Positions 1 to 18,732 of a stretch of DNA of 64,000 nt are shown here, one piece after another. The stretch covers positions 3,332 through 67,331 of the forward strand of contig JBAZXV010000008.1 in NCBI GenBank assembly GCA_041659685.1, read 5' to 3'. The position numbers were made by a program, and so were the translations under genes. This stretch comes from Parcubacteria group bacterium. Its GTDB lineage: Bacteria; Patescibacteriota; Minisyncoccia; Moranbacterales; UBA11712. Position 1 is the first letter of the stretch. Each line of letters starts with the position of its first letter. The notes beneath the pieces are model-generated. The model saw only the letters and a program-made list of their open reading frames with translations. It was not told where the DNA came from and did no database searches.

Positions 1-3000
1 GATTCCAATGCTGCCGGTGCTATTCGCGAACAAAGCTTCGGTCGATCCGGCGCGGACGCGCAGAGGCGAAAGAGTCGAAGATGCCCCGGTTTGAAGATTC
101 AGAAGAGAGCCAGTGCCATTGGCTCCGTTGTCGGTCGTGAGCGAGAAAAGATCGCTGGTTCCCGTTCCTGTCGCCCAGTTGAAAGCGGAGGAATAGGTTC
201 CCATGTTGAGAGACAAGCTGGTGCCCGGCGCTGTGAGAGCCGACCAGGTGCTGGATCCGGCGCCACCGAGATTCGTCCAGCTTCCCCCGCTGTTTTTGAA
301 TTGCAACGTTCCATTGTTATCAAAGATTCCGTATCCATTTGTCCCGGTCAAAGAACCGAAATTCAAATAGTTGTTCGATCCGCGCAAAATCGCGCTGCCG
401 GTGAGATCCAGCGCCGCCAGCGGAGAAGTTGTGCCTATGCCGACATTTCCGCTTGTATAATATATATTTGAACCGTTCTGCCCCCAGAGAGAGGAAGCGC
501 CGCTGCCGCTACTAGACGAGCCGAGAACGGTTTCGTTGCCAGAACTGTCTTTGAAGGCCAAAGCTGATGCTCCATAGGCTCTCGTCGGCGGAGTGAAATT
601 TGAAGTCCAGCGGGCTGTGCCTTTGGAAACTCGAACTTCATCCATGTAGCCACTGAAGTAGGTTGGGCCGTAAACCACCCGACCAATTTCTACAGGGGCT
701 GCAAAAGTAGACCAGGTGTTGGTAGAAGCCGTGCCGCTTGCGACGCCATTAATATACTGCGTTACAACTCCTCCCGATCTTACTATAGCAATATGTGTCC
801 ATGTGGTCGCTGGAATAGTTATAGTTGAATGAAAACCAATTACGGTGCTGCCTGATATATTCAGATAAGTGTTTAATTGATTCCCAGTATCAATATATAC
901 AGAGAAATAATTACTTGTATCTACCCACTGATCTATAATTCTATCCAACACACCTGCGTTATTCCTATTTACCCACATATCAATAGTGAAATCTCCTGAC
1001 CCGTAATCCCAATCATCGCTATCAGGCACGGAAACATAGTCTCCGGTCCCGTCAAAATAAGCGCTCTTTCCTCCAAATTCCGATTTGGTCGTACTTTGGG
1101 TGGCATCGCCATTTGCCGTCACGGTTTTTGCGCTTGAAGAACTATCCGTGAAAGTTGCACCCATTCCGTCAGCGTGGAGAAGAAGCTTGGTATATGAATC
1201 ATTTCCGGCCAGTGGAGACATGGCATACAACTTCCCAAACCCGCTCGTCGCGCTCGGAGAGCTCGTTTGTTCCGCAAGACTCATCACACCGTTAACGGTC
1301 AATTTCTCATTCGGGCTGGTTGTTCCGATTCCAATGCTGCCGGTGCTATTCGCGAACAAAGCCTCGGTCGATCCGGCGCGGACTCGGAGAGGCGAAACGG
1401 TTGAGGACGCTCCGGTTTGGAGATTCAAGAGCGAGCCGGTGCCGTTCGCCGAGTTGTCAGTCGTCAAAGAGAAAAGATCGCTGGTTCCCGTTCCTGTCGC
1501 CCAGTTGAAAGCGGTGGAATAAGTTCCCATATTGAGAGACAAAGCGGTGCTCGGCGCGGTGAGGGCCGACCAAGTGCTCGATCCGGCGCCGCCGAAATTC
1601 GTCCAGGCTCCCCCGCTGTTTTTGAATTGGAGGGTTCCGGCGTTGTCGCGGAAACCGTATCCGTTTGTTCCGTCAGCCGTTCCCCAGTTGAAATAGCCGT
1701 TGGCAGCCAAGCCGATGTTGCCGATGACATCAAGCGCGTGATTGGGAGTGGCATTGCCGATACCCACGCTTCCGCCGGTGTGGTAGATGCTGCCGTCGGG
1801 GTTGGCCGTCCAGACGCCGGTTGCCGTGGAAGAAGTGGCATAGTATTTCCAGTCGGAGTTCGAAGCGAGATCCGGACCGTTGTTATAGATCGGAGCGCGG
1901 TAGATTACGCTGTTATAGGACGCGTTGCCTCCGCCGAAAAGATAGACATATCCGCCGACAACAGCTGTTTGAGAAGCATAAAGATTGGCTGGCAAAGTTG
2001 CGCCGGAACTGACCCAGCTGGTCGGGTTCGAGACTGGAGCGCGGTATATTGTGCTTATTGCACCGCTTGTATACCCCCCCAACAAATATACATAGTCTCC
2101 GATAACGGCAACCTGCGACATTCCGATACTTGCCGGCAGAGTGGCACCTGTGTTGACCCAACTGGTCGGGTTTGAAACCGGAGCGCGGTAGATGACGTTG
2201 GTAACTGGTCCGTTGAGAGTTCCGCCGAAAAGATAGACATAACCTCCAATAACCGCGACATGAGAATATGCCAGATTTCCCGGTATGGTTGACCCGGTGT
2301 TTTCCCAGGAAGTCGGGTTCGAAACTGGAGCGCGATAGATGACGTTGGTATAGGCACTGCCGTTGTGTCCGCCGAAAAGATAGACATAGTCGCCGATGAC
2401 GGCTACTTGGGAAGCTTGGAGATTGCCCGGCAAGGTTGATCCGGTGTTTGACCAAGAAGTGGGGTCGGAAACTGGAGCGCGATAGATTACGTTGGTAATT
2501 GCGCTAGCGCTAACTCCGCCAAAGAGATATACATAATCTCCGATGACCGCCACTTGGGATTGCTGGAGATTCCCCGGCAAAGTTGCTCCTGTATTCGTCC
2601 AGGAAGTCGGATTGGAAACAGGCGCTCGGTAGATAACATTCGTTGCCGCGCTTGCATTGGTTCCACCGAAAAGATAGACATAGTCTCCGATGACAGCAGT
2701 TTGGGAATGTGCCAACACACCCGGCAGAGTCGCGCCTGTATCCACCCATTCGTCTTCTTTCATCCCCGTGCTGCCGGTTCCAGAGCTCGAACCCATCGCC
2801 ATCCAAGCGCCGTTTGAGTTTCGAAATTCCATCGTCCCGTTGTTGTCGCGGATGCCGTAGCCGGAATTTCCGGCGGTCGAGCCGAAATTGAGATAGTTAT
2901 TGAGTCCGCTCAAAATGCCGCTGCCGGCAAGGTCAAGTTTCGCGAGAGGCGCGGTCGTGCCGATCCCCACGTTTCCGGAGTTATAATAGAGTGAAGAGCC

Positions 3001-6000
3001 GTTGGTTCCCCATTGAGATGAAGCGCCGCTGCTTCCTCCAGTCAAAGCGGTAATGTTTCCGTCAGAATCCTTGTAGGCAAGATGCTTTCCAACGTCAAAA
3101 GCTTGGTTTGGCGGAGTGAAATTGGATGTCCAGCGGGCAATGCCTTTGGAGACTCGAATTTCGTCTTTATAATTTGCCACATCGTCCTGATACTCGGAAC
3201 CTCTTGAATAAAATCCTCCGATTCTTATGTAATTATTAACAGTAAAACTAAAGGAAGTGGTCGACGTAGATGTTTTCACTCCGTTTATAAACCCAAAAAC
3301 ACTGCTGCCTGACCGCACGTAGGCAACGTGAACCCATTGATTCAAGGGCACGGTGCCTTCGGTTATGGTGGTCCAGGCATAGCCGCTGCCGGTTTCCGCT
3401 CGAAAATCCAGCTGATTGTTCGTGATGCCGCACGTTATTTCTTGTCTTTGGTCCAGGCCCCAGCCTTTATCACCTATACTAAATACTGTTATCCTATGAC
3501 CTACCGTCGAGGCAGTCAGATAAACCCAGGCATCCACAGTGAAATCTCCCGCACCAAAAGCAAAATCGCTGCTGTCCGCCAAGCTGAGGTAATCCCCTGT
3601 CCCGTCGAAATAGGAGCTCTTTCCGCCAAACTCTGATTGAGTCGAACTCTGAGTTGCGTTGCCGTAGGCCGTCACCGTTTTTGGAGTAGCTTCGCTGTCC
3701 GTGAAAGTAGCGCCTGTGCCGTCGGCGTGGAGCAGTAATTTTGTGTAGGAATCATTGCCGCCAATTCCACCCACTGCGTACAACTTGCCAAATCCGCTCG
3801 TGGCATCAGGCGCATTCATGGATTCCGCAATGGAAATATTTCCGTTCACGGTCAATTTCTCGTTCGGGCTGATTGTCCCCACTCCGACATTCCCGGTGTT
3901 GCCCGCGAACAAAGCTTCGGTCGAGCCGGCCCGGATTCGGAGAGGCGAAAGGGTTGAAGAGGCTCCGGTTTGGAGATTAAGAAGCGAGCCGGTGCCGTTG
4001 GCGGAGTTGTCGGTGGTGAGCGAGAAGAGATCGCTCGATCCCGTTCCGGTTGTCCAGTTGAAAGCGGAAGAATAGGTTCCCATATTGAGAGACAAGTTGG
4101 TGGAAGGCGCGGTGAGAGCCGACCAAGAAGAGGAACCGGCGCCGGCGCCAAGATTCGTCCAGATTCCCCCGCTGTTTTTGAATTGCAATGTTCCGGCGTT
4201 ATCTCGGAAACCATATCCGTTCGTTCCGTCAGCCGTTCCCCAGTTGAAATAGCCGTTGGCGGAGAGGCCGAAGTTGCCGGTGATGTCGAGAGCATGATTG
4301 GGAGCATTGTTTCCGATGCCGACGTTCCCGCCGGTGTAGTAGATACTGCCGTTCGTGTTGGCCGTCCAGATTCCTGCCGCAGAAGAAGTTGCATATTTCC
4401 AAGAGGCGTTCGAGGCTAGGGACGGACCGCCATTGAGAATAGGAGTACGGTAAATAGTGCCGATTCCGACACTGCCATTATTTCCTCCAAAAAGATAAGC
4501 GTAATTTCCGACAGCCGCGACTTGAGAAAGATACAAATTGCTCGGCAGAGTTTTGCCTGTATTGGTCCACGTCGTCGGGCTAGAAACAGAGGCGCTATAC
4601 ATGACATTAGTATAGACACTGCTACCAAGATATCCACCCAGTTGATATATTTTATCGCCGACAATCATAGCTTGTGAATAACTGAGAGTGCCCGGTATAC
4701 TTGATCCCGTGCTGGCCCAAGAAGTCGGGTTGGAAACAGGGGCCCGATAGATAGTGGCGGTTCCATAGCCCCCGAACAAATAGACATAATCCCCAATAAC
4801 TGCAAGCTGAGACCAGGTCAGGTTCGTCGGCAAAGTCGAACCCGTGTTTGCCCAAGAAGTCGGATTGGAAAGCGGAGCGCGGTAAATAACATTGGTATTG
4901 CCGCCACCGTTATATCCCCCAAATAAATATATGTAATCTCCGATAATTGCGACTTGCGAACCATCCAAGTTTCCTGGCAAAGTCGAACCCGTGTTTGCCC
5001 AAGAAGTCGGGTTGGAAAGCGGAGCGCGATAGATAACATTGGTTGTTGTGCCAGCAATATTTCCCCCGAACAGATAGACATAATCTCCGATAATTGCGAC
5101 TTGCGAATATCCCAAATTACCCGGCAAAGTCGAACCCGTGTTTGTCCAGGACGTCGGACTGGAAACAGGAGCCCGATAGATGATATTTGAATTATATCCC
5201 CCGAACAGATAGACATAATCGCCAATGACCGCGGTTTGAGAGCCATATAGAGCGGCTGGCAAAGTCGAACCTGAATCCGCCCATCCGTCTTCTTGCATGG
5301 ACATACTAGTCGTTCCGCCGCCGCCTGATCCTATTGCTACCCAAGCGCCGCTTTGGTTTTTGTATTCCATTGTTCCGTTGTTGTCGCGCAGACCGTATCC
5401 GGAAGTTCCGGCGGTCGAGCCGAAGTTCAAATAGTTGTTGAGCCCGCTCAAGATTCCACTGCCGGCAAGGTCAAGTTTCGCGAGCGGTGCGGTCGTGCCA
5501 ATTCCCACGTTGCCGGAGGTATAGTAGGCGCTGGTGCCGTTCTGGCCCCAGAGGGAAGATGCGCCGCTGCCGGATGCTCCGGCCAAAACTGTTTCCGTGC
5601 CTAAACTGTCTTTATACGCCAGAACACCGCCGCTGCCATAAGCTCTCGTTGGAGGAGTGAAAGCGGAGGTCCAGCGGGCGATGCCTTTGGAAATTCGATA
5701 TTCATCCATATAGCCATTGAAGGAAGTGCCGCCGTTCCAATCAGCTCCGATATATAAACCACTCGCCGACATATCAAATGTGGCGCTTGTCGCCCAGTCG
5801 GAACCTTTTTGAGCTCCGTCACGGAAAACTTTCACGACTCCGTTTGTCCTGACGACCGCCGCGTGATACCAAACACCGGTGGAAAGAGAATCGGAAAAAG
5901 CATGATTAGCAGCTCCATCATATAAATTCCAGCCATTGGAAGCATCATACATTATTCTTAGGGAGGGATTCGGCAGGCTGCCGGCTGAGGTAAGGAAAAA

Positions 6001-9000
6001 ATTATTAGTTGTGCTGTTCAGTCTGAACCAAAAATCCACTGTGAAATCCCCGTCCCAAGTCCAATCGGTACTGTCAGTCGTCGACAAATAGCCGCTGCTG
6101 AAGCTGGCGCTTTCTCCTCCGAACTTGTATTGAGTTGTGCTTTGGGTAGCCGTTCCTGCCGCCGATACAGTTTTTCCGCTTGAGGAGCTGTCCGTGAAAG
6201 TCGCGCCCGTCCCGTCAGCATGAAGAAGGAGCTTGGTGTACGAATCGTTTCCCGAAAGCGGAACCGCATAGAGCTTTCCAAATCCGCTCGTCACGTCGGG
6301 GGCGGCCGCAGATTCCGCGAGACTCATTGCGCCGTTCACGGTGAGTTTTTCATTGGGAGCGGTCGTCCCGATGCCGACGTTGCCGGAATTATTTATGTAT
6401 AAAGCCTCCGTGGACCCTGCCCGGACTCGAAGGGGAGAAAGACTTGAAGACGCTCCGGTCTGGACGTTGAGGAGTGAACCGGTGCCGTCGGCCAGATTGT
6501 CGGTGGTGAGCGAGAAGAGATCGCTCGTTCCCGTTCCGGTCGTCCAGTTGAGATTGGTGGAATAATCTCCCATGCCAAGATAGGAGTTGGTGGAGGGATC
6601 GGTGAGGACCGACCAGGAAAGAGTGCTGGTTCCGGATCCGATGTCCTCCCAATTGCCCGAGCTGTTTTTGAATTGCAAAGTTCCGGCGTTGTCGCGCAGG
6701 CCATATCCGGTTCCGCCATCAGTCGCGCCAAAGTTGAGATAGGCGCTCGTCGAAAGTCCCAGGTTGCCGGCGATGTCAAATGTATGGTTTGGAATTGTCG
6801 TTCCGATGCCCACGGAGCCGGTGGTGAAATATATATTGTTCCCGTTGTTTGTCCACTGGCTGGCGCTCGCGGTCGGAATGTTGGTCCAGGACCCGCCGCT
6901 GTTTTTGATCTGGAGCGTTCCGTTGTTGTCAAAGATTCCGTAGCCTGATGATCCGGAGGTTGAGCCGAAGTTGAGATATCTGCTCGATCCGGAGAGAATC
7001 GCGTTGCCAACGACGCTAAGTGCCGCAGCCGGAGAGGTCGTCCCGATTCCCACGTTGCCGCCGGTGTAGTAGAGCGAAGAGCTATTGGTGCCCCAAGGCG
7101 AAGTCAGTCCGCTAGCGCCGCCGGTTGATCCTAAAATAGTTTCCGTGCCCGAACTGTCTTTGAACGCCAAACTGGTTCCACTTCCATAGGCTCTTGTCGG
7201 CGGAGTAAAGGCAGAGGTCCAACGGGCGGTGCCTTTTGAAATGCGCACTTCGTCCATATAGCCGTTCAGATAGTTTCCCGCATAATCACCCAGTTTTCCA
7301 ATCCCTAAATTAGTTGACACGAAATTCTTTAGTGCGCTTGCGCCTATATTTGTAGTGCTTCCTGAACCAACTTCGCTTGTTCCATTTATAAAAAGATATA
7401 ATGTGCTACCCGATCTGACTCCTGAAATATGGTACCAGGTATTGGCCGATACGGTCGTTGTAGATTTTACATAACGGAGTATATTTCCTGTATCTTTTGT
7501 GGAAAAAACTATATTATTTGAAGAATCCAAATAAAAATGCCACTCATGATCATTGCCTGCCGAGTTAAGGTCTCCGATAAAATATTGATATGATCCTACC
7601 ACGCTTACTCTAGCCCAAAAATCAACCGTAAAGTCTCCCGAGCCGAAATTAAAATCGGCTGTGGCAGGTGTCGTCACTCCGCCGGTTCCGTCGAAATAGG
7701 CGCTTTTTCCGCCAAATTCATATTGGGTTGAGGATTGGGTTGAATTTCCACCGGCTGTCATCGCGTGCGCGGAAGCCGAACTGTCAGTGAAAGTGGTTCC
7801 GGATCCATCGGCGTGAAGAAGAAGGGTTGTATAGGAATCATTGCCTGTCATGGCCATGGCATACAATTTCCCATATCCGCTCGTCGCACTTGGAGAACTC
7901 GCTTGCTCCGCGAGACTCATCACGCCGTTGACGGTCAATTTTTCATTGGGAGTGGTCGTCCCGATGCCGACGTTGTCCGAAACGCTGGAGAGATAGACGT
8001 TTGAACCCGCGTCCGTCCAGCCGCCGCCGACCGCGCCGAAAGTCGCCCAATCCCCGCCCGAGTTTTTGTATTCAATCGTTCCTCCGTTGTCCCGCAAGCC
8101 ATATCCATTTGTTCCGGTCAAAGAACCAAAATTCAAATAATTATTCGAGCCGCGCAAAATGAGGCCTCCGGTCATGTCGAGCGCCGCGAGCGGAGAAGTC
8201 GTGCCTATGCCAATATTTCCGCTTGTATAATATAAATTAGTGCCATTCTGGCCCCAGAGATTGGAAAAGCTACTTCCCCCGCCACTTCCGCCCAGTTCAT
8301 ATTCCGTGCCTCCGGCGGTTTTGTAAAAGAGTCCGGTGGTGTTGTAGGCCTGTGTCGGCGGAGTGAAAGCGGAAGTCCAACGAGCGGTGCCTTTCGAGAC
8401 GCGGAGCTCGTCGATATAGCCGGCAAAATAGTAGTGATTACTGCTGTAATCATTCATTCCAATGGTTAAGGGCTGCGCAGCATCGTTTATTGTCGCAGAA
8501 GAAGTTCCACTTCCTCTTTCCACTCCATCCACATACAGCTTGAAAGATGTTCCGTTTCTCACCCATGCAACATGATGCCAATTACTATTGGAAAGAACGT
8601 TGCTCGATGTTATGCCCACTGTTACTGATGTTCCATCTGTCCAAAAATTTGCAAACGCATGTCCTGTCGCATCCGCACCCACGACCCACCTCGTCAATGA
8701 TGCGGAGCCATAGTTGGATTGAGCGACGAATTCTTGTTCGGTTCCTGTCGCGAAATTGCTTGAGTATGCCCAAAAGTCAACGGTGAAATCCCCCGATCCA
8801 AAAGTCCAATCGTTGCTGTCCGCAACGCTCAAGGAGTCTCCGCTACCGTCAAAATAGGCCGACTTACCGCCAAATTCGGACTGAGTTGCGGATTGAATTG
8901 CATCACCGTTGGCGGTAATTGTCTTGGGAGTCGATTCACTATCTGTAAAAGAATTTCCAGTTCCATCGGCATGAAGAAGAAATTTGGTGTATGTATCGTT

Positions 9001-12000
9001 GCCTCCGGATTGTGTTGCATACAATTTCCCAAACCCGCTGGTCGCGCTTGGAGAACTCGCTTGCTCGGCGAGACTCATCACGCCGTTCACTGTCAGTTTC
9101 TCATTGGGGCTGATTGTTCCAATGCCGACGCTGCCGGAAGAATTCACATACAAAGCCTCAGTCGATCCGCCGCGGACGCGGAGGGGCGAAACAGTCGAGG
9201 ACGCTCCGGTTTGGAGATTCAAGAGCGAACCGGTGCCATTGGCTGAATTGTCGGTCGTGAGCGAAAAGAGGTCGCTGGTTCCGGTTCCCGTCGCCCAGTT
9301 GAAGACGGTCGTGAAAGCGCTCATCGGAAGAGACAGATTGGTGGATGGATCGGTGAGAGTCGACCAAGAAGCTGCGGTGCTGCTGGTACTACTTCCGCTG
9401 CCAATGTTGGTCCAGGTTCCGCCGGAAGCTTTGTATTGGAGGATTCCGGCGTTGTCGCGGATGCCATATCCGGAAGAACCGATGGTTGTGCCGAAGTTGA
9501 GATAGGCGCTCGCCGCAAGACCCAGGTTGCCGCTTGAATCAAAAACTATCTCCGGATCCCCTGTGCCGTTCACATTGAAGCCGAGCGTGTTGGCGGTGGT
9601 GTTGTAGCTCAAAGTATATTCGTCGCTTGTCGAAGATCCGATATGGAGCGTAGCCGGTCCAAGAAAGAGATCGCTCCAGCGATGGGTGTCGTCGCCGAGA
9701 TTATAGGTATCGTCAACTGAGGGAAAGATGTCTCCCGCGACGGTAAGTTTGGCGGAAGGACTTGTTGTCCCGATTCCGACGTTGCCGTTCATTGTTACGT
9801 CACCGTTAGACCTGATTGTCATTCTTTCGCTTCCATTGAGCGTCGTGTCATTCGCCGCGGTAAAAAATCCTATCTCCGTCGCCGCATTTTCCATATTAAA
9901 ACTTGCGCCTGCTCCGCCAATCCAAACCTTATTGTTAGTGCCGTCAGAACGCCCCTGAATCAATGCGACTGGCTCCTCTGCGTCGGTTTTATGAGCCATC
10001 GCGATAAAAGCATCTTTTTGCGCATTGCCGCCACTGGCATAATCAGAAAGTTTGAGAGTCACCACATTGTCACTTCCGACAATATCCAGCTTCGCCCCCG
10101 GATTCGTCGTCCCTATCCCGACGTTGCCTTGATTTGTAACGACAAATTTTTCCGACCACAGTCCACTGCCATGATTTGTATAAACCGAAAATCTTCCCGT
10201 ATAAGTGCCTGTCGCGCTTCCCGATGACTGCAATATGATATTAGAACTATCATCCGATAATGTTGGTCTGGCATTGAGGATAATTTGAGCTGTAGTTGGA
10301 TTATATACAGTCAATCCTCCGCCATTTACAAAAGCTGACCCTGCCACTTCTAGCTTCGCTCCCGGGCTCGTCGTCCCGATGCCGACGTTTCCTTGCTTTA
10401 TATACAAACTATTAGCCACCGCTCCTGAACCTGTCATCACCAAAACATCATTGGTTCCGCCTGCCCGAATCACAGTGTCTCCCGAGCTTCTGATTGTCAT
10501 GGCCGCGCTGGTATTGTCTCCGATATACACATTGTTCCCGCTGGAAAAATAAGCCAGCTGTCTTGCTGTCCCGCCGCTATCTTTTGCGGTCAAAGCCTGT
10601 TCATTATCAAGCAATATACTTCCACCCGAAACTGTCAGTTTCGCCCCCGGACTCGTCGTTCCGATGCCGACGTTGCCCGCTTTCAGTACCAGCGTATTTG
10701 CCACGGCCGAAGGTTGATAAATGGTCATGACTTGGGCAGCGTTTACTTTGAAAAGCATATTTCCGTTTGATTTGTCACCGGCTTCCAAAATAAGCGACCC
10801 CACATTAGCATGTTCATTCCCATACAGATAGATCGTCGCGCCTCTCGTGTTTCCGGCCACTCCTCCGCCAGTTATTGTCAAAACATCGCTGTCCGAAGCG
10901 TCAACTGTGGCAGTACTGATGGTCGAATTTGCTCCGAAAGACAATTTGGAAGTCGGATTCGTCGTCCCGATCCCGACGTTGCCCGCTGATGTTATTCTCA
11001 TCCACTCATTTGCTCCTGTGTTTATGCTTCCATTCGTTGCAAAAGTTATTGGATTAGCACTGTTTGTCAAGATGGAAAGTCCCGCTTCGGCTGAAATAAA
11101 ACCGCTATTAGCTCCTGCATAATAAGTATTCGTTGAAGCATACGTTCCGAGTTGGTTGTAATATGAAGAATTGTAAACCGCGATAGAATTTCTAGTATCA
11201 CTACTTGCTACAAATTTTGCCATTGTAGCACTTGTTGGAGCTCCATAAACATGCAATAGCATTCCCGGCGCGGTCGTTCCAATGCCAACGTTGCCGCCGT
11301 CGGCTACCGTCATGTATGATTCCCACACGCCGTTGTTATCTACATGCCCAAACTGAACATTTCGATCTGTCGCAGAACTCGAATTTCCCCTGATGCGGAT
11401 TGCACCGCTGTTTGTATCGCCCATTATGAATCTCTCCGTGAGTTCAGAAGAGAAAACCAAATTTCCTCGCAGACTTTCGTTTCCCACGACAACAAGTTTC
11501 GAACCGGGACTAGTTGTCCCAATCCCGACATTGCCGTTTGTGTCCCAGATTCCCGACCCGGGGAAATATGTGTTCGCCGAGAAAGTCTGCGCGCCGGTCC
11601 AAGTATTGGCGTGTCCGAGATTCAAAGACGCGACCACATCTCCGATCGTCGGCGAGATGGTGAGCGTCCCGTCGGAATTTGTGACCGAAGAAACTCCGAC
11701 GCTCGCTACCGATGTCCAACTGGCGAGTCCATTCGCGTCCGAGGTCAAAACTTTGTTGAGACCCGGAGTTCCGCCGGTGATTTTCACTTGCCCCGCAACT
11801 TCGAGTTTCGAGCCAGGTGTAGTGGTGCCGATTCCAATGTTGTCACTCTTTAAATATAACGTGTTGGCTGCGTTCCCCTGCTCCACAGTCATTACGACTT
11901 TTCCTCCTTGATTATCATAGAGTTTAAAACTTCCATCATTAGCTGTAATGCCTTGTCCAATTGACCAACCGTCTGACCCATCAACTTTGCCAAAAAACAA

Positions 12001-14763
12001 ATTGGCGTTTTGGTCTGCAGCAGCATTAGTAATTGCTATGGTTGCACCAGAAACTTGAAGATTTCTTGTCGGACTTGTCGTTCCGATGCCGACGTTTCCG
12101 GAGCTTATTATTCGCATCGCTTCCGTTGATGAATAACTTGAGTTAGTTCGTCCAGTTCTAAAAGACAAAAAATTATCGGAAGCAGTGGCGGAACCCGCAA
12201 TATCAATATATCCGCCTACTCCACCATCCTGTAAAAATGACATCTCTTGCGGACGCCCCGTGGTATGCAATACAAAACCAGATTGACCGTTTGTTGCTGT
12301 TGCAGTTAAATCTAGTATTTTATCAGCAGATGAATTTATAGACGCATGGGGGCTCGTCGTCCCGATGCCGACGTTGCCAGTTCTCAAAACAGTAAACACG
12401 TCCACCCCATCACCCAAAGCTTGGTTATTTACTGTGAATCTTCCTTCTGTCGCTCCAGAACCAGCGTTTGTGGAAATACCAGCCGTCACCCATCCAGGCT
12501 TAGTTGCGTGTGAATGGGCAAACAAGTTTATTGCTCCGCCATAACCATTGGAACCAACACCAGCTTGCATCACCAATTGACCCGTGCCCGTGTTGGTATC
12601 AGCAGATTCTCCCATTATTATGTACCTTCTGCTCCCGTCTACTTTTGATAATCTGATATTCCCGTTTACGGACAGCGGGCTGTTCGGCGCTGTCGTTCCG
12701 ATGCCGACGTTGCCGTCATTTTTTATATTCAGGATCGGATTCCCCCATGTTCCTATTTGTATTTGGTTTGTATTGTCCAAATTGCCTACATACATATCCG
12801 TTGCAGTTTGCTGATTGAAAAATATCAGTCCGCCAGAACCGCTTGCATTTGAGTTAAATTCAAGAGTGGCTCCGCTACCCGTCCCTAATTTGGCATTTCC
12901 TGCCACATGCAACAGCGAGCTTGGGCTCGTCGTCCCGATGCCAACGTTGCCCGCTATGTATCCGTTTCCGCTAAGCCACAGGTCTGACCATTTAGCGGTT
13001 GAAACTCCTAAACTTATCATGCCAGTACTAGAAACATAGGGTCTGAAGGCGCCATTAGTTAAAACAACATTGCCCCCATCTGCTCCTCCGTTTGCCTTCA
13101 AGTTGAAGTTTCCGCTTGTCCCCGCTAAAAATGTAAAATCCGGACCAGTTCCATTGGTTGTAATGCTCAATTGCCCTACGCTGTTCACAGCGAATTGGGT
13201 GTAATTTGAAGCATCGTATCCCAATCTTAATTGTTCTGTGGTTTTAAATACATGTAATGCCGCTCCCGGCGCGGTCGTCCCGATGCCGACATTGCCACTT
13301 GCTCCGGCATAGAAAGTTCCGGCGCCATATGCCGCGACTCCTCCGAGATATACATTTCCGGAAGTATCAATTCTGAAGCGAGTGGCTGGCGTTGTGCCGT
13401 CTTCAATAATGAAATTGTCATCTCCTCCGTTCTGTCCCACTCCCATATACCAATTTCGGCTGTCAGTTTGAATGGAAGTATAAGTATTGGCGTCGGCTGT
13501 TCCGCCAACCACCAGTTTATATTGTGGATTCGTTGTCCCGATCCCGACGTTGCCGTTATTTAAAATAACCATTTTTGACCCGTTACTTCCAGTCGAACCA
13601 ACCCTAAAGTCATAACCATAAGAATTTAAAACTAGTGCCTGGTCGCCTGCTCCTCCAATATTGGATATGCCCAAAGTAGCACCAGTATATCCGCTCCTTG
13701 AAAGCTGCATTGAATCATTCCATGCCGAGCCATAAACATCCAACTTCGCCCCCGGCGTCGTTGTTCCGATCCCGAGGTTGCCGTTTTGTAAGATTGTCAT
13801 TGCTTCTGTGCTTCCCATCTGAAAACGCAATCTACCTGCTCCACTTTCCATCATAATACGCCCCGACAAATCATTCATTTGTCCGAAACTCATATAATCA
13901 GCACCAACCAAATCTCCGTTAGAAGCATCGAAATACATCAAACTGTCACCCGAACCCGTATTCGCAATGAGAGTAGTAGTTCCTCCTGCAGATGAATCGC
14001 TTATGGTTAACTTTTGCCCCGGAGTCGCGGTTCCAATCCCGACGTTGCCGCCCGTGAAAGTCGCGGCGTATCCCGTTCCTGACTGAGCGACTTTGAGCGC
14101 CGTACCGGTTCCCCCGCCGGAGCCATACACGACGCTCAAAGCACTGTTTGTCCCGCTCGCGGGATTGTAATTTATATTCGCCGCGTCTTGTGCGGCCCCA
14201 GTGTTGTCGATATCGATGAATCCATCCCCGACCACGTTCAGCGAATTGATGGCTTGGGGAACCGCGCCTAGTCTTTTGCGGGGGGACATTTCCGCGTCTG
14301 AGTCGACCGTCACGCCGAGATAATATGTGTCTTGGTCAAAGTTTAGATTCAATGCATTGCCATTTCCGCTTCCGAGCATCACCGAAAAAATTCCCTTGCT
14401 GACTGCTACTGCGTTCCCGTTCACTGCCGTATACGTCCCGGTCCAGAGGAGATTTCCGTTTTCGGCCGCGTCATACAGCTTGAAAACCATGTCATAGTTC
14501 CCATCCGCCACCGCCACGTTCGAAGTGTTCGTGAGTTTTCCCTGATAATTCATCTGCCGGTTGACCGCCGCTTGAGAGAAGTAGGCAAAGCAAAAAAACC
14601 CGACTGAAACAATCAGCCCCGTTCGAACCACCCGTCCGATTCGTATTATTTTTCCCACTTGCCCCTTCAACCCCATTTTTCCCGTTTCACCCTTTTCATC
14701 CATTTTTTCAGTTTTGTTTCTTGTTTTGTTTCTCACTTGAGATTCAGTTCCCTCGATTCCCAT
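1..14763 (-). CDS. giant secreted/cell-surface protein, >4,900 aa within the window (C-terminus beyond window start): signal/TM segment + GNVGIGTT beta-helix repeats + 5 LamG-like domains + 2 Kelch-like propellers
   Basis: The minus-strand frame whose codon first bases fall on coordinates divisible by 3 is open with no stop at every point translated: 1-1380, 1681-1800, 2341-2460, 2976, 4347, 9135, 12714 and 14521-14763. Translation gives GSIGIGTTSPNEKLTVNG...KLLLHADG...GYMDEVRVSKGTARWTSNFTPP and GNVGIGTTSP motifs. In-frame stops at 14766-14768 and 14773-14775 are followed by in-frame ATGs at 14763, 14703 and 14676. A basic-then-hydrophobic N-terminus (KIIRIGRVVRTGLIVSVGFFCFAY) follows. No complete minus ORF in this frame is listed in the track, consistent with an ORF that leaves the window without a stop. 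Confidence 0.8.
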   Translation of the reverse strand, partial: MGIEGTESQVRNKTRNKTEKMDEKGETGKMGLKGQVGKIIRIGRVVRTGLIVSVGFFCFAYFSQAAVNRQMNYQGKLTNTSNVAVADGNYDMVFKLYDAAENGNLLWTGTYTAVNGNAVAVSKGIFSVMLGSGNGNALNLNFDQDTYYLGVTVDSDAEMSPRKRLGAVPQAINSLNVVGDGFIDIDNTGAAQDAANINYNPASGTNSALSVVYGSGGGTGTALKVAQSGTGYAATFTGGNVGIGTATPGQKLTISDSSAGGTTTLIANTGSGDSLMYFDASNGDLVGADYMSFGQMNDLSGRIMMESGAGRLRFQMGSTEAMTILQNGNLGIGTTTPGAKLDVYGSAWNDSMQLSRSGYTGATLGISNIGGAGDQALVLNSYGYDFRVGSTGSNGSKMVILNNGNVGIGTTNPQYKLVVGGTADANTYTSIQTDSRNWYMGVGQNGGDDNFIIEDGTTPATRFRIDTSGNVYLGGVAAYGAGTFYAGASGNVGIGTTAPGAALHVFKTTEQLRLGYDASNYTQFAVNSVGQLSITTNGTGPDFTFLAGTSGNFNLKANGGADGGNVVLTNGAFRPYVSSTGMISLGVSTAKWSDLWLSGNGYIAGNVGIGTTSPSSLLHVAGNAKLGTGSGATLEFNSNASGSGGLIFFNQQTATDMYVGNLDNTNQIQIGTWGNPILNIKNDGNVGIGTTAPNSPLSVNGNIRLSKVDGSRRYIIMGESADTNTGTGQLVMQAGVGSNGYGGAINLFAHSHATKPGWVTAGISTNAGSGATEGRFTVNNQALGDGVDVFTVLRTGNVGIGTTSPHASINSSADKILDLTATATNGQSGFVLHTTGRPQEMSFLQDGGVGGYIDIAGSATASDNFLSFRTGRTNSSYSSTEAMRIISSGNVGIGTTSPTRNLQVSGATIAITNAAADQNANLFFGKVDGSDGWSIGQGITANDGSFKLYDNQGGKVVMTVEQGNAANTLYLKSDNIGIGTTTPGSKLEVAGQVKITGGTPGLNKVLTSDANGLASWTSVASVGVSSVTNSDGTLTISPTIGDVVASLNLGHANTWTGAQTFSANTYFPGSGIWDTNGNVGIGTTSPGSKLVVVGNESLRGNLVFSSELTERFIMGDTNSGAIRIRGNSSSATDRNVQFGHVDNNGVWESYMTVADGGNVGIGTTAPGMLLHVYGAPTSATMAKFVASSDTRNSIAVYNSSYYNQLGTYASTNTYYAGANSGFISAEAGLSILTNSANPITFATNGSINTGANEWMRITSAGNVGIGTTNPTSKLSFGANSTISTATVDASDSDVLTITGGGVAGNTRGATIYLYGNEHANVGSLILEAGDKSNGNMLFKVNAAQVMTIYQPSAVANTLVLKAGNVGIGTTSPGAKLTVSGGSILLDNEQALTAKDSGGTARQLAYFSSGNNVYIGDNTSAAMTIRSSGDTVIRAGGTNDVLVMTGSGAVANSLYIKQGNVGIGTTSPGAKLEVAGSAFVNGGGLTVYNPTTAQIILNARPTLSDDSSNIILQSSGSATGTYTGRFSVYTNHGSGLWSEKFVVTNQGNVGIGTTNPGAKLDIVGSDNVVTLKLSDYASGGNAQKDAFIAMAHKTDAEEPVALIQGRSDGTNNKVWIGGAGASFNMENAATEIGFFTAANDTTLNGSERMTIRSNGDVTMNGNVGIGTTSPSAKLTVAGDIFPSVDDTYNLGDDTHRWSDLFLGPATLHIGSSTSDEYTLSYNTTANTLGFNVNGTGDPEIVFDSSGNLGLAASAYLNFGTTIGSSGYGIRDNAGILQYKASGGTWTNIGSGSSTSSTAASWSTLTDPSTNLSLPMSAFTTVFNWATGTGTSDLFSLTTDNSANGTGSLLNLQTGASSTVSPLRVRGGSTEALYVNSSGSVGIGTISPNEKLTVNGVMSLAEQASSPSATSGFGKLYATQSGGNDTYTKFLLHADGTGNSFTDSESTPKTITANGDAIQSATQSEFGGKSAYFDGSGDSLSVADSNDWTFGSGDFTVDFWAYSSNFATGTEQEFVAQSNYGSASLTRWVVGADATGHAFANFWTDGTSVTVGITSSNVLSNSNWHHVAWVRNGTSFKLYVDGVERGSGTSSATINDAAQPLTIGMNDYSSNHYYFAGYIDELRVSKGTARWTSAFTPPTQAYNTTGLFYKTAGGTEYELGGSGGGSSFSNLWGQNGTNLYYTSGNIGIGTTSPLAALDMTGGLILRGSNNYLNFGSLTGTNGYGLRDNGGTIEYKNSGGDWATFGAVGGGWTDAGSNVYLSSVSDNVGIGTTTPNEKLTVNGVMSLAEQASSPSATSGYGKLYAMAMTGNDSYTTLLLHADGSGTTFTDSSASAHAMTAGGNSTQSSTQYEFGGKSAYFDGTGGVTTPATADFNFGSGDFTVDFWARVSVVGSYQYFIGDLNSAGNDHEWHFYLDSSNNIVFSTKDTGNILRYVKSTTTVSANTWYHISGVRSGSTLYLFINGTSEVGSGSTTNIGASALKNFVSTNLGIGKLGDYAGNYLNGYMDEVRISKGTARWTSAFTPPTRAYGSGTSLAFKDSSGTETILGSTGGASGLTSPWGTNSSSLYYTGGNVGIGTTSPAAALSVVGNAILSGSSRYLNFGSTSGSSGYGIFDNNGTLQIKNSGGSWTNIPTASASQWTNNGNNIYFTTGSVGIGTTIPNHTFDIAGNLGLSTSAYLNFGATDGGTGYGLRDNAGTLQFKNSSGNWEDIGSGTSTLSWSVLTDPSTNSYLGMGDYSTNLNWTTGTGTSDLFSLTTDNLADGTGSLLNVQTGASSSLSPLRVRAGSTEALYINNSGNVGIGTTAPNEKLTVNGAMSLAESAAAPDVTSGFGKLYAVPLSGNDSYTKLLLHADGTGATFTDSSSSGKTVSAAGTATQSTTQYKFGGESASFSSGYLSTTDSTDWTWDGDFTVDFWFRLNSTTNNFFLTSAGSLPNPSLRIMYDASNGWNLYDGAANHAFSDSLSTGVWYHAAVVRTNGVVKVFRDGAQKGSDWATSATFDMSASGLYIGADWNGGTSFNGYMDEYRISKGIARWTSAFTPPTRAYGSGGVLAYKDSLGTETVLAGASGSGASSLWGQNGTSAYYTSGNVGIGTTAPLAKLDLAGSGILSGLNNYLNFGSTAGTSGYGLRDNNGTMEYKNQSGAWVAIGSGGGGTTSMSMQEDGWADSGSTLPAALYGSQTAVIGDYVYLFGGYNSNIIYRAPVSSPTSWTNTGSTLPGNLGYSQVAIIGDYVYLFGGNIAGTTTNVIYRAPLSNPTSWANTGSTLPGNLDGSQVAIIGDYIYLFGGYNGGGNTNVIYRAPLSNPTSWANTGSTLPTNLTWSQLAVIGDYVYLFGGYGTATIYRAPVSNPTSWASTGSSIPGTLSYSQAMIVGDKIYQLGGYLGSSVYTNVMYSASVSSPTTWTNTGKTLPSNLYLSQVAAVGNYAYLFGGNNGSVGIGTIYRTPILNGGPSLASNASWKYATSSAAGIWTANTNGSIYYTGGNVGIGNNAPNHALDITGNFGLSANGYFNWGTADGTNGYGFRDNAGTLQFKNSGGIWTNLGAGAGSSSWSALTAPSTNLSLNMGTYSSAFNWTTGTGSSDLFSLTTDNSANGTGSLLNLQTGASSTLSPLRIRAGSTEALFAGNTGNVGVGTISPNEKLTVNGNISIAESMNAPDATSGFGKLYAVGGIGGNDSYTKLLLHADGTGATFTDSEATPKTVTAYGNATQSSTQSEFGGKSSYFDGTGDYLSLADSSDFAFGAGDFTVDAWVYLTASTVGHRITVFSIGDKGWGLDQRQEITCGITNNQLDFRAETGSGYAWTTITEGTVPLNQWVHVAYVRSGSSVFGFINGVKTSTSTTSFSFTVNNYIRIGGFYSRGSEYQDDVANYKDEIRVSKGIARWTSNFTPPNQAFDVGKHLAYKDSDGNITALTGGSSGASSQWGTNGSSLYYNSGNVGIGTTAPLAKLDLAGSGILSGLNNYLNFGSTAGNSGYGIRDNNGTMEFRNSNGAWMAMGSSSGTGSTGMKEDEWVDTGATLPGVLAHSQTAVIGDYVYLFGGTNASAATNVIYRAPVSNPTSWTNTGATLPGNLQQSQVAVIGDYVYLFGGVSASAITNVIYRAPVSDPTSWSNTGSTLPGNLQASQVAVIGDYVYLFGGHNGSAYTNVIYRAPVSNPTSWENTGSTIPGNLAYSHVAVIGGYVYLFGGTLNGPVTNVIYRAPVSNPTSWVNTGATLPASIGMSQVAVIGDYVYLLGGYTSGAISTIYRAPVSNPTSWVSSGATLPANLYASQTAVVGGYVYLFGGGNASYNSVIYRAPIYNNGPDLASNSDWKYYATSSTATGVWTANPDGSIYHTGGSVGIGNATPNHALDVIGNIGLAANGYFNWGTADGTNGYGFRDNAGTLQFKNSGGAWTNFGGAGSSTWSALTAPSTALSLNMGTYSTAFNWATGTGTSDLFSLTTDNSANGTGSLLNLQTGASSTVSPLRVRAGSTEALFANSTGSIGIGTTSPNEKLTVNGVMSLAEQTSSPSATSGFGKLYAMSPLAGNDSYTKLLLHADGMGATFTDSSSSAKTVTANGDATQSTTKSEFGGKSAYFDGTGDYVSVPDSDDWDYGSGDFTIDMWVNRNNAGVLDRIIDQWVDTSNYFSVYIDTGNQLNTYLNISGSTVIGFHSTITIPATTWTHIAIVRSGGVVTQYINGVASGTASTNTWSTFAAPVEIGRVVYGPTYFSGYMDEVRVSKGTARWTSNFTPPTRAYGASALAFKDSSGNETVLGSSSSGSGASSLWGQNGSNIYYTSGNVGIGTTSPLAALDLTGSAILRGSNNYLNFGSLTGTNGYGIFDNNGTLQFKNSGGSWTNLGGAGSSTWSALTAPGTSLSLNMGTYSSAFNWATGTGTSDLFSLTTDNGANGTGSLLNLQTGASSTLSPLRVRAGSTEALFANSTGSIGI
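560..1190 (-). other. LamG-like domain 5
   Basis: Directly translated: KLLLHADGMGATFTDSSSSAKTVTANGDATQSTTKSEFGGKSAYFDGTGDYVSVPDSDDWDYGSGDFTIDMWV...GYMDEVRVSKGTARWTSNFTPPTRAY. Confidence 0.7.
2000..2760 (-). repeat. Kelch-like beta-propeller, 5-6 blades
   Basis: Translated blade: TSWSNTGSTLPGNLQASQVAVIGDYVYLFGGHNGSAYTNVIYRAPVSNP. The unit recurs every ~144 nt at about 2021, 2161, 2301, 2445 and 2585. Confidence 0.6.
3085..3745 (-). other. LamG-like domain 4
   Basis: Translation gives KLLLHADGTGATFTDSEATPKTVTAYGNATQ...KDEIRVSKGIARWTSNFTPP. Anchor motifs lie at 3720-3745 and 3111-3135. Confidence 0.6.
4440..5290 (-). repeat. Kelch-like beta-propeller, about 6 blades of about 48 aa
   Basis: A 144-nt periodic DNA repeat is seen at about 4550, 4725, 4855, 5000 and 5145, with the same repeat unit as the 2000-2760 propeller. 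Confidence 0.55.
5630..6235 (-). other. LamG-like domain 3
   Basis: The plus strand reads cgtcagcatgaagaaggagctt (HADG) at about 6205-6235 and ggaggagtgaaagcggaggtccagcg (RWTS.FTPP) at about 5651-5680. Confidence 0.55.
7180..7830 (-). other. LamG-like domain 2
   Basis: The KLLLHADG-encoding segment is at 7801-7830 and the RWTSxFTPP-encoding segment at 7201-7230. Confidence 0.55.
8330..8990 (-). other. LamG/Concanavalin-A-like jelly-roll domain 1 of the giant protein
   Basis: A KFLLHADG-type start sits near 8950-8990 and a DE(V/I)R(V/I)SKG.ARWTSNFTPP end near 8351-8380 (plus-strand ggcggagtgaaagcggaagtccaacg). Confidence 0.6.
9560..14100 (-). repeat. about 16 tandem beta-helix-type repeats (77-117 aa each), each carrying a GNVGIGTT(S/A)P...KL.V.G motif; N-terminal half of the giant protein
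   Basis: The plus-strand motif ccgat(g/c/t)ccgac(g/a)ttgcc (reverse complement GNVGIG) recurs at about 9768, 10120, 10375, 10662, 10965, 11278, 11516, 11828, 12082, 12362, 12698, 12930, 13280, 13535, 13765 and 14030. All copies are in the same frame. Confidence 0.7.
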
Positions 14764-14786
14764 TTTTTATTTCTAAATATTTTTGA

Positions 14787-14814
14787 ATTTTACACTGTCA
14801 TTTTTCGCTTTGAA
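14787..14814 (-). promoter_or_regulatory. candidate sigma70-like promoter for the giant gene (TTCAAA-N16-TAAAAT on the minus strand)
   Basis: The minus strand reads ttcaaagcgaaaaatgacagtgtaaaat in the 52-nt spacer between the HTH-gene stop (14816) and the first in-frame ATG (14763). Confidence 0.3.
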
Positions 14815-14815
14815 C

Positions 14816-15238
14816 TTATTTCGGAACCACTGTCACTGATCCCACTTCCTCCGGATTATCCGCGTGAATTATGAGGTTATTATTTGCATCTTTCTCAACT
14901 TTAATATCGCTTTCCGAATTGATTCCCCGATAATTCCAGGAAATTATCACAAGTATGAAAATTGCAACCAGCACAACAGCCCATTTGAGATTGAGAACGG
15001 CTTTTTTTTGCTCAAAGGCCGGGATATTTGCGTTTAGTGATTCCTGCCGGCGATAGTTCGCCTCCGCTACCCGATCGGTGTATTTTTCAACCGTTTCTTT
15101 CGTCGTAAACCACTTGCCGTCTTTTTTAAATCCCTCCAATTTTCCTTTTCTCACCAAAAGACTCAGATAGTCCGCGCTATAAGGAGAATTTTTACTGGCT
15201 TCTTGCAGTGTAATTAGATTTTTTTCTTCAGCTCCCAT
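14816..15238 (-). CDS. membrane-tethered DNA-binding protein: N-terminal excisionase/MerR-like HTH, one TM helix, short extracytoplasmic tail
   Basis: LITLQEASKNSPYSADYLSLLVRKGKLEGFKKDGKWFTTKETVEKY resembles an HTH_17-type motif, followed by a hydrophobic WAVVLVAIFILVIISW segment. The gene is co-oriented with and 52 nt upstream of the giant gene. Confidence 0.55.
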   Translation of the reverse strand: MGAEEKNLITLQEASKNSPYSADYLSLLVRKGKLEGFKKDGKWFTTKETVEKYTDRVAEANYRRQESLNANIPAFEQKKAVLNLKWAVVLVAIFILVIISWNYRGINSESDIKVEKDANNNLIIHADNPEEVGSVTVVPK

Positions 15239-15258
15239 TTTTTTGATATTTAAGGTAA

Positions 15259-15300
15259 CTCGATATCATATCCGATACTGTATCGACACCAGAATTATAG
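15259..15300 (-). promoter_or_regulatory. candidate promoter/operator of the HTH gene: extended -10 (TGcTATAAT) followed by two adjacent palindromes (CGATACAGTATCG, GATATGATATC)
   Basis: The minus strand reads gtgcTATAATtctggtgtCGATACAGTATCGGATATGATATCgag immediately upstream of the ATG at 15238. Confidence 0.35.
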
Positions 15301-15303
15301 CAC

Positions 15304-15332
15304 AAAAAAAGGCCTGCCAACAGCCTTTTTTA
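15304..15332. terminator. rho-independent terminator hairpin, A-tract/stem/T-tract and symmetric
   Basis: The sequence aaaaaaaGGCcTGccaaCAGCCtttttt lies downstream of the RAYT gene on the minus strand. Confidence 0.55.
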
Positions 15333-15348
15333 ACCAAGTTATCCACAC

Positions 15349-15376
15349 CCCACTTAGACACTCAGTGTCTAAGTGG
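15349..15376. repeat. REP-like palindrome type 1 (ccaCTTAGAcactcagtgTCTAAGtgg); overlaps the RAYT stop codon
   Basis: A perfect 27-nt palindrome. Its reverse complement recurs at 15817-15841. Confidence 0.7.
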
Positions 15377-16019
15377 ATTCATCTGATTTTTCCATAAATT
15401 CAACATCCCCTTTTCGCCTCAAGATGGCCTCAAGAGACATTTTTGAAAACTCTTCATATTCCTTGAAATTTGGAAATTGATCGCAAATTATACTTTTCTC
15501 GCAAAAGCCGGTTTTTCGCCACTTTTCGTATTCGGACCAGCTACTCAGGAAAATCCCACCAACATCTTCCATTTTATGCACTTTATAGTTCAAATTGACA
15601 TAAGTTGAGGCGTAAAGCAACTGTTTATTGGTTTTAATATGGACTGACTGGAAAGGGCCCTGAAAAAGCACTCCATTCCTCTTATGCCTGTGATTGAAAT
15701 ATTTCGTATACCCGTTTCCGATTTTGTGCATAAATTTTTCAATTCCTTTATCTGAAACTTGCTCAAGAATCAGATGATAATGGTTCGGATTGAGACAAAA
15801 ACACACTATATTTACCCACTTAGACACTGAGTGTCTAAGTGACTTATTCTTGTGAAAAGAGCTGACATAGATACCGCCATATGATTCAACCCGATTGAAT
15901 TCAGACATACTCTGCAAAAATCGGGAAATGTCTTTTTTATCGAGAAAAACAGGTCTTTTCTCAACACCTCGGTTATAGACATGATAGTACTCTCCGTTTA
16001 CTAATTGCACTTTTCTCAT
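15369..16019 (-). CDS. HUH (Y1) tyrosine transposase, IS200/RAYT-like
   Basis: 216 aa. GEYYHVYNRG N-terminus, HUH motif NPNHYHLIL and a Tyr region GNGYTKYFNHRH. A paralog lies at 22688-23347. Confidence 0.7.
   Translation of the reverse strand: MRKVQLVNGEYYHVYNRGVEKRPVFLDKKDISRFLQSMSEFNRVESYGGIYVSSFHKNKSLRHSVSKWVNIVCFCLNPNHYHLILEQVSDKGIEKFMHKIGNGYTKYFNHRHKRNGVLFQGPFQSVHIKTNKQLLYASTYVNLNYKVHKMEDVGGIFLSSWSEYEKWRKTGFCEKSIICDQFPNFKEYEEFSKMSLEAILRRKGDVEFMEKSDEST
15817..15841. repeat. REP-like palindrome type 1, inverted copy, lying inside the RAYT coding sequence (encodes SLRHSVSKW)
   Basis: cacttagacactGagtgtctaagtg is the exact reverse complement of the 15349 copy. The paralog at 22688 lacks this segment. 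Confidence 0.65.
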
Positions 16020-16029
16020 AGAGTCTTTG

Positions 16030-16995: not shown

Positions 16996-16999
16996 TATA

Positions 17000-17995: not shown

Positions 17996-18066
17996 TAATT
18001 TTCAAGTATCAATTTCCCGATAAATTTTCAACGCAATAATTTTCAAAATTTAAAAAATTGAAAATC

Positions 18067-18690: not shown

Positions 18691-18732
18691 TAAAATTATT
18701 TTACTTGGTGCAATTATTATATATCAAACGTT

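Follow-up and report, generated by a model that had tools for sequence, protein, structure and literature searches.

Old, diverged module repeats in a giant tail-fibre-like surface protein gene of a Parcubacteria bacterium

Mosaic adhesive trimer (MAT) fibres are trimeric adhesins exposed at the surface, which resemble tail fibres and have tip domains that can be exchanged (Caulton et al. 2024, PMC10769870). Other giant surface proteins have been described in Apilactobacillus kunkeei, where the diversification of Giant1-5 is attributed to short intragenic recombination events (PMC12863079), and in Absconditicoccaceae and Omnitrophota, where they are proposed to mediate contact with host or prey (PMC13059738; bioRxiv 10.1101/2023.11.21.568195). 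Very large ConA-domain surface proteins of Patescibacteria have also been put forward as host-recognition factors (PMC13059738). As a class, giant adhesin genes that are built of repeats and evolve by module duplication and loss are already well known. How ultrasmall Patescibacteria recognise and hold their host cells is nonetheless largely unknown, and current work centres on type IV pili (PMC12206443). Here we describe a giant gene at the left end of a 64,000-nucleotide (nt) stretch of Parcubacteria contig JBAZXV010000008.1 (from here on: the window, meaning the whole stretch that was analysed). It probably encodes a surface fibre of the phage-tail-fibre or Bdellovibrio MAT kind, in which the DNA repeats are the footprint of old module duplications within the lineage that have since diverged and were later edited by crossover, rather than a contingency switch.

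The gene occupies positions 1-14763 of the window as one minus-strand open reading frame (ORF) of 4921 codons. It starts with an ATG at 14763, has no stop codon within the window and runs off the left edge. Region 1-9560, which contains the repeats, is its distal part as far as the window shows. A preliminary description of the region took this part for the C-terminal 9.5 kb of the gene, which has to be corrected: the full product on record, recovered when one repeat unit was searched with HMMER against all of 1.84 billion representative proteins, has 1110 further residues. This protein (P0241; NCBI MFA5926334.1, 6031 amino acids (aa), annotated as partial) is encoded on a 74,591-nt contig of a Parcubacteria metagenome-assembled genome (MAG), and its residues 1-4921 are identical to the window ORF. 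The gene therefore reaches a minimum of 3,330 nt beyond the left edge of the window. The 6031-aa record is itself partial, the public contig ending within the gene. The total size on the minus strand is at least 18.1 kb, with one reading frame open for 6031 codons, and the gene is truncated in the window and in the public record alike.

The shaft of the protein is homologous to a MAT fibre. Residues 823-1049 align with Bd2133 of Bdellovibrio bacteriovorus (PDB 8OND_A; phmmer E=4.3e-10), the alignment containing the signature '...E.MRI..SGNVGIGT..P...L.V', and weaker matches were obtained to three other MAT structures (8OML, 8OL4 and 8OJN). On this homology the protein is predicted to be a tail-fibre-like cell-surface fibre with a shaft related to that of Bd2133. 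The likeness to MAT fibres (PMC10769870) goes further: in both, a signal or anchor is apparently followed by an N-terminal beta-rich domain and by a long shaft of '...E.MRI...GNVGIGT..P..KL.V' repeats, and both combine lectin-type adhesive domains with a mosaic, tip-swapping evolution. Members of this superfamily are expected to have a conserved beta-rich N-terminal domain of about 130 aa right behind the signal peptide, to trimerise obligately along the fibre and to end in an S74 chaperone/protease or another adhesive tip. Differences are found in size and design, since MAT proteins have about 1000 aa and a single adhesive tip whereas the present protein exceeds 6000 aa and carries ten globular lectin-like domains along its shaft. 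Also, the bacterium is a member of the Parcubacteria and not a predatory proteobacterium, and the NCBIfam model of the MAT N-terminus (NF053851, Bdello_MAT_N) matches aa 57-136 weakly (E=8e-6; 25.7 bits, below the cut-off of 60). A fold search with the N-terminal domain gave only weak viral matches.

Similarities with phage tail fibres and with 'tail fiber domain-containing proteins' are of two kinds. The GNVGIGTT shaft motif is abundant in IMG/VR (at least 120 viral stretches), and the S74 chaperone of tail fibres (PF13884, Peptidase_S74) is present in many proteins homologous to the N-terminal domain. Unlike these systems, the gene is chromosomal and lies among housekeeping genes, and no S74 domain was found in the visible 6031 aa. 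The composition of the protein, which is rich in Gly, Ser, Thr and Asn, nearly free of cysteine and poor in charged residues, fits an extracellular fibre. Taken together, the product is probably a very long trimeric cell-surface fibre studded with lectin-type domains, for which binding of a host cell or glycan is a likely role.

Compared with the other known giants the protein stands apart in its shaft. A. kunkeei Giant1-5 are also very large extracellular proteins of repeated modules (PMC12863079), but they have other folds, come from another phylum and are represented by many strains, whereas our comparison is between internal paralogues of one genome. The giants of Absconditicoccaceae (PMC13059738) and Omnitrophota (bioRxiv 10.1101/2023.11.21.568195) are similarly membrane-anchored, carry adhesion or lectin domains and belong to ultrasmall or predatory bacteria; a tail-fibre-type shaft with serial LamG/Kelch super-modules is not described there. 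We regard the protein itself as the more interesting aspect of the locus: a MAT-like fibre that exceeds 6000 aa and bears ten lectin-type domains, encoded in a Parcubacteria chromosome, would be a concrete candidate for a host-binding organelle.

The architecture runs from an N-terminal anchor and beta-sandwich through the GNVGIGT shaft to a series of super-modules, made of four unit types joined at GNVGIGT motifs, and to a discoidin domain at the visible end. Each unit starts at a GNVGIGT motif, and the in-window protein has 30 GNVGIGT-like motifs. The LamG unit (about 300 aa) and the optional, six-bladed Kelch propeller (about 330 aa) are the larger ones. The head unit (about 65-80 aa; '...YLNFG...GYG..DN.GTLQFKNSGG.W') exists as a B type and a C type, and the T tail (about 85 aa) reads 'WSALTAPST...LFSLTTDN.ANGTGSLLN.QTGASS..SPLRVRAGSTEAL'. 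The super-modules are not uniform: two contain a Kelch propeller, one is without C head and T tail, and in one the head is directly followed by a T tail.

At the DNA level a block of about 300 nt is present in five in-register copies, which start at 1, 1327, 3880, 6370 and 9121. Identity to the copy at 1 is 87% (1327), 76% (3880), 65% (6370) and 67% (9121). The similar blocks further along the gene and the super-module periodicity noticed in the preliminary description are thereby confirmed, the measured spacings being 1326, 2553, 2490 and 2751 nt. Self-blastn E-values of the repeats (1e-110 down to 0) are far beyond chance, and further repeat families are formed by the LamG flanks and the Kelch blades. 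Positions 1-56, a patch at the junction of T tail and LamG unit (minus strand), indeed differ from 1327-1382 by a single T/C change (55/56 identical). An identity of about 88% had also been given for 121-300 against 1451-1620; this is correct in register (87.2% for 121-300 against 1447-1626) but 4 nt out as written, since the literal coordinates yield 28%.

What does not stand is near-identity as a general property of the repeats. The best DNA repeat (1-346 against 1327-1672) is 85% identical, the only long colinear pair (971-3171 against 3524-5712) 71.4%, and the other self-blastn pairs range from 62 to 85%. The longest exact run between any two sites of the gene has 46 nt (143-188 on the minus strand, equal to 1469-1514), followed by runs of 38 and 36 nt. 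Repeated k-mers in the gene number 38 at k=31 and 6 at k=41, and none is left at k=55. Of the 150-nt windows, only 0.16% can be paired with another site of the gene at 90% identity or more. In copy-number-variable repeat arrays, by comparison, the copies are near-identical (about 95-100%) over hundreds of nucleotides; here the best pair reaches 85% over 346 nt and the long pair 71%. Repeats that were judged near-identical by eye turn out to be 62-87% identical, and they are old copies of protein modules instead of a near-identical, actively shuffling array.

The age of the copies becomes apparent from a codon-aligned comparison of the units, in which synonymous divergence (dS) was calculated with the method of Nei and Gojobori (NG86). 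The lowest values are 0.58-0.60, for the most similar pairs of C units and T tails; the most similar B heads give 0.74-0.81, the Kelch pair 1.7, and the LamG units more than 1.5 or saturation. Amino-acid identity amounts to 88-94% for the best pairs of C units and T tails and 49-57% for the LamG units. The high DNA identity of the T tails is therefore mainly a result of strong protein conservation. A larger block (aa 4901-5941), most of which lies beyond the window edge, aligns colinearly with aa 1861-2920; the amino-acid identity is 62%, and the alignment indicates a higher-order duplication of about 3.1 kb.

One head unit carries a mark of later recombination. In the head at aa 4772-4836, the first approximately 40 residues most resemble the B head that starts at aa 2182 (83-93% nucleotide identity), whereas its last approximately 15 residues and the following tail are closest to the C units starting at aa 3479 and 4331. 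A maximum-chi-square scan places a breakpoint at window position 327-333 (approximately; maximum chi-square 48), a value that was reached in 0 of 2000 permutations (p<0.0005). Among the informative sites, 53 of 62 agree with the B-type head of aa 2182 to the left of about nt 330, and 31 of 36 agree with the C-type head of aa 4331 to the right of it. Judged by its sequence this head is a B/C chimera, and such a chimera is the expected scar of unequal crossing-over between a B head and a downstream C head. It lies at 22-450 (minus strand) together with the T tail that directly follows, its 5' part being of B type and its 3' part of C type.

Relatives of the fibre were found at the level of modules. 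No close orthologue of the gene turned up in the genome, metagenome and protein collections, the protein homologue searches taking in matches up to about 1.75 times the query length (at most 1081 aa for the 620-aa query and 700 aa for the 400-aa query). LamG-level relatives from whole-protein scans of genomes and metagenome contigs reach at most 47% identity and almost none carry GNVGIGT; they were rejected as orthologues. The head/T module is present at E<=1e-3 in 1354 representative proteins, many of which have 2000-7400 aa. Among 16 giant relatives that were inspected, T tails number one or two per protein, against six here, and for each of these six the nearest copy lies within the protein itself (76-94%), copies elsewhere being less similar (65-75%). 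This similarity within the protein means that the module expansion is lineage-specific.

Many of the giant relatives (P0242-P0247, P0253, P0257, P0287, P0292 and P0362) were seen by eye to share features beyond the head/T module. An integrase-SAM-like region stands at the N-terminus ahead of the membrane anchor, the motif 'SD.R.K' recalls the S74 chaperone, a long stretch resembles a coiled coil, and the C-terminal end is conserved as '...TPLGSTNNQVLYVK...FNWWIV'. By analogy, their C-termini may suggest what the missing C-terminus of the present protein looks like.

The comparison with orthologous loci that the preliminary description had proposed was thus possible for a syntenic locus only. 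In L068 (ENA assembly ERZ25039515, Patescibacteria) the three genes upstream of the fibre gene are 59-65% identical to those in the window, and the N-terminal domain of the fibre is 60% identical. The L068 fibre body, about 8.5 kb long and frameshifted in this assembly, has a different middle region without any LamG unit or T tail. A second locus, L069, is also partly syntenic over the first three upstream genes. By analogy, the mosaic pattern of L068 would parallel the 'tip swapping' of MAT fibres (PMC10769870) and the intragenic recombination in giant surface proteins (PMC12863079).

These observations can be joined in one course of events. Segmental duplication through unequal recombination within the lineage would have created the module repeats, one of the duplications being of higher order (about 3.1 kb). 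The copies would then have diverged for a long time, T tails and heads being held by purifying selection and perhaps by occasional short gene conversion, while the lectin-like LamG cores would have changed the most. Later, two head units would have undergone unequal crossing-over at least once, with loss of the segment between them. The copies now appear to have too little uninterrupted identity for frequent homologous rearrangement, which implies that module gain and loss take place on evolutionary time scales and not as contingency switching. In this way the internal repeat history, with its conserved scaffold, divergent LamG cores and crossover scar, illustrates the way in which a fibre of this kind can be extended and rebuilt.

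It might be argued that the repeats have been static, with no recombination or conversion after the original duplications, and that unequal purifying selection on scaffold and lectin units explains all differences. Synonymous divergence is indeed high everywhere, and the conservation of the T tails follows their very high amino-acid conservation (76-94%). Also, as set out below, the codon pattern of the GNVGIGT motif is family-wide. Three results are difficult to accommodate, however. The first is the chimeric head with its sharp breakpoint. The second concerns the fraction of identical residues that are encoded by the same codon: overall it is 0.60 in T tails but 0.45 in both LamG and Kelch (randomised expectation 0.31-0.36), and between super-modules 3 and 4, despite their expected common duplication date, it is 0.70 for the T tails but 0.45 for Kelch. 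Units that should share a duplication date and yet are unequal in synonymous similarity point to conversion or codon constraint. The third is the clustered identity tract of the pair 1/1327, which has a GENECONV-like permutation p of about 0.002-0.005, uncorrected for ten pairs. Across the window edge the protein is identical over 57 residues at this tract, 38 of them beyond the edge, so that the tract may be up to about 170 nt long. For these reasons we consider an entirely static history unlikely.

Less probable still is an active contingency locus, in which the repeats would now drive frequent in-frame gain and loss of super-modules and hence population heterogeneity in fibre length or antigenicity. 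Several properties of the gene would suit it: the units keep the reading frame and meet at a conserved motif, exact runs of 21-26 nt are common to many GNVGIGT sites, RecO is encoded in the window, one patch is identical at 55 of 56 positions, and the chimeric head is the footprint of a past crossover. Moreover, the GNVGIGT codons (GGC AAC GTC GGC ATC GGG ACG) are far more uniform than the codon usage of the gene predicts (homogeneity 0.536 against an expected 0.328+-0.02, reached in 0 of 5000 simulations; examples are the sites 10364-10392 and 12350-12378). A similar position-specific pattern is however found in unrelated IMG/VR viral loci with 40-50% GC, and the uniformity looks like a family-wide property of the motif sequence; as proof of intragenic conversion it was rejected on the same grounds. 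The remaining evidence also speaks against frequent shuffling, as the exact runs (at most 46 nt), the 71% identity of the only long colinear pair and a dS of at least 0.58 are far from the near-identity that is typical of copy-number-variable repeat genes, and no variant assemblies were found.

The in-frame module gain and loss by recombination envisaged in the preliminary description can thus be retained as history, on account of the chimeric head, the varied unit content, the lineage-specific T expansion and the differing fibre body of the syntenic locus, but not as a frequent process of today. From the divergence of the copies, frequent gain and loss of a RecA type appears unlikely at present. 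Recombination has built and edited the array, and nothing points to ongoing shuffling at high frequency. A diversity-generating retroelement target was considered as well and rejected: the 46 ORFs scanned with Pfam contain no reverse transcriptase domain, and the sole near-identical pair differs by one T/C.

A more far-reaching proposal would combine the fibre and its junctions. A Parcubacteria episymbiont might build a trimeric 'multi-lectin' fibre of more than 6000 aa, in which the near-uniform-codon GNVGIGT junctions act as recombination joints for the in-frame duplication, deletion and exchange of LamG, Kelch and discoidin cassettes, thereby tuning the host surfaces to which it can attach. 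We offer this as a speculation with a small chance of being right.

That all or part of the array is a mis-join, collapse or expansion from short-read assembly is very improbable: the contig does end inside the gene, the homologue of a related MAG is cut by a contig end and assemblies are known to break up at giant genes rich in repeats (bioRxiv 10.1101/2023.11.21.568195), but a single frame stays open for 6031 codons, the copies are mutually diverged and so can be neither a mis-assembly duplication nor collapsed at k>=55, and an independent Logan contig (L001; SRR18595301) is 100% identical to the window over 14462-17437.

Returning to the history of old duplications, divergence and later crossover, a number of points weigh against it. 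The chimeric head could be the ancestral form, the head-Kelch-head arrangements being derived from it by insertion. Codon constraint, rather than conversion, could lie behind the lower synonymous divergence of the T tails, an option raised by the occurrence of the position-specific GNVGIGT codon pattern in unrelated viral loci. More similar copies could be present in the 3.3 kb to the left of the window or beyond the contig end, and the 1/1327 identity patch does rise towards the window edge. No orthologue near enough for module counting was found. Finally, head and T units reach a pLDDT of only 35-70 in AlphaFold2 (AF2) monomer models.

The preliminary description had also warned that such repeats commonly collapse in short-read assemblies. 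For the repeats in the window this is a real hazard at k<=41 but a small one with modern assemblers, since no collapse is possible at k>=55, where no k-mer is shared. Fragmentation is another matter. Repeat-driven breaks in giant genes are well documented (bioRxiv 10.1101/2023.11.21.568195), among them those of the Absconditicoccaceae and Omnitrophota giants. Within the fibre gene, the source contig stops about 32 codons past a GNVGIGT motif, and in MAG GCA_043803385.1 a contig end leaves 255 aa of the homologue. Breakage at a repeat was considered for the Logan contig and rejected, since no repeated k-mer coincides with its end at window position 14462, where the sequence is unique. Module counts inside the contig are probably reliable, whereas the gene end is not.

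The units of the gene, all on the minus strand, are arranged as follows. A hydrophobic signal or anchor (aa 44-66) and the conserved beta-sandwich domain (aa 57-190, approximately) are encoded at 14194-14634; for the latter, AF2 pLDDT exceeds 90 over approximately aa 67-171 and homologues are 60-61% identical. The fibre shaft (9787-14049; aa 239-1660) has 15 GNVGIGT-delimited repeats with a period of 76-115 aa, and 16 motifs if the one opening the super-module region is counted. The first super-modules comprise C unit 1 (head and T tail; aa 1730-1876, 9136-9576), LamG unit 1 (aa 1877-2181, 8221-9135; Pfam Laminin_G_3), B head 1 (aa 2182-2262, 7978-8220; the unit to which the 5' part of the chimeric head is most similar), LamG unit 2 (aa 2263-2568, 7060-7977), and B head 2 (aa 2569-2648) with C unit 2 (aa 2649-2793) at 6385-7059. 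LamG unit 3 (aa 2794-3083, 5515-6384) is followed by B head 3 and Kelch propeller 1 (4330-5514), which matches Pfam Kelch families and has a blade period of 147 nt and a Tandem Repeats Finder (TRF) array at 4765-5181 with 80% matches. After C unit 3 (aa 3479-3623, 3895-4329) and LamG unit 4 (aa 3624-3929, 2977-3894) come B head 4 and Kelch propeller 2 (1774-2976; assigned with Pfam, TRF array 2165-2694 with 75% matches). C unit 4 (aa 4331-4474, 1342-1773), the partner in the best DNA repeat, and LamG unit 5 (aa 4475-4771, 451-1341) precede the chimeric head. LamG unit 5 has its best Pfam match at aa 4571-4714, an AF2 pLDDT above 90 and Foldseek matches to lectin-like jelly rolls.

Domain assignments are clear for the larger units. 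Pfam matches to Laminin_G_3 (PF13385) reach 269.3 bits (cut-off 27.6) and cover 5 in-window stretches, and those to Kelch (PF24681/PF13964) reach 124.1 bits (cut-off 50) in two arrays with the 147-nt period. Beyond the window edge, Pfam recognises two more LamG domains in P0241 and one F5/8 type C (discoidin) domain near the visible end, which brings the whole visible protein to 7 LamG, 2 Kelch and 1 discoidin (ten lectin-type domains). The LamG unit is modelled by AF2 with a pLDDT above 90, and its Foldseek matches include clostridial neurotoxin Hc-N and domain 4 of the arabinanase AbnA (E about 1e-8 to 3e-9). In a monomer model of a super-module only LamG is confident, and a C-unit profile gave no meaningful match against the PDB.

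Apart from the fibre gene the window consists of ordinary chromosomal DNA, with leucyl- and methionyl-tRNA synthetases (LeuRS, MetRS), an F-type ATPase operon, GlmS, BacA, TGT and RecO; no tRNA genes were found in it. GC content is higher in window positions 1-10000 (0.52) than elsewhere (0.43-0.45). A foreign origin of this GC-rich repeat region was rejected, as the excess sits at the second codon position (GC2 0.55 against 0.37; GC3 at the third position 0.55 against 0.50) and so reflects a Gly/Ser/Thr/Ala-rich amino-acid composition. From its base composition the fibre gene looks native to the genome.

Upstream of the fibre gene a cluster of minus-strand genes extends over 14816-20299. The conserved part (14816-17995) encodes a 140-aa helix-turn-helix-like protein with a C-terminal transmembrane segment and two paralogous WxLIP_PGBD-like proteins of 321 and 331 aa. 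Three small, secreted, Ser/Thr-rich proteins of 207, 235 and 234 aa with a common 'GWKLEVN' motif are also part of the cluster; they look WxL-like by eye, although none of the three has a Pfam match to a WxL domain. These genes may together serve to anchor or assemble the fibre. An IS200-like ORF (15369-16019, minus strand, 216 aa) is inserted between the 140-aa gene and the WxLIP gene and is missing at both syntenic loci, L068 and L069. It has a paralogue at 22688-23347 (minus strand, 219 aa), and the matches of the two to the Y1 IS200-like transposase are weak (23.1 and 27.3 bits, cut-off 23).

Three further genes on the minus strand deserve mention. The leucyl-tRNA synthetase (28792-31695, 967 aa) has an insertion at approximately aa 373-472, directly after the editing domain, that matches nucleotidyltransferase families (Aminoglyc_resit, 33.7 bits; NTP_transf_5, 26.2 bits). 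A right-handed beta-helix protein (pectate-lyase-like/NosD, 318 aa, 27017-27973) is encoded among nucleotide-sugar and cell-envelope genes. At 60353-62323 lies a second predicted surface protein (656 aa), which has DUF11, DUF7619 and DUF7507 repeat domains.

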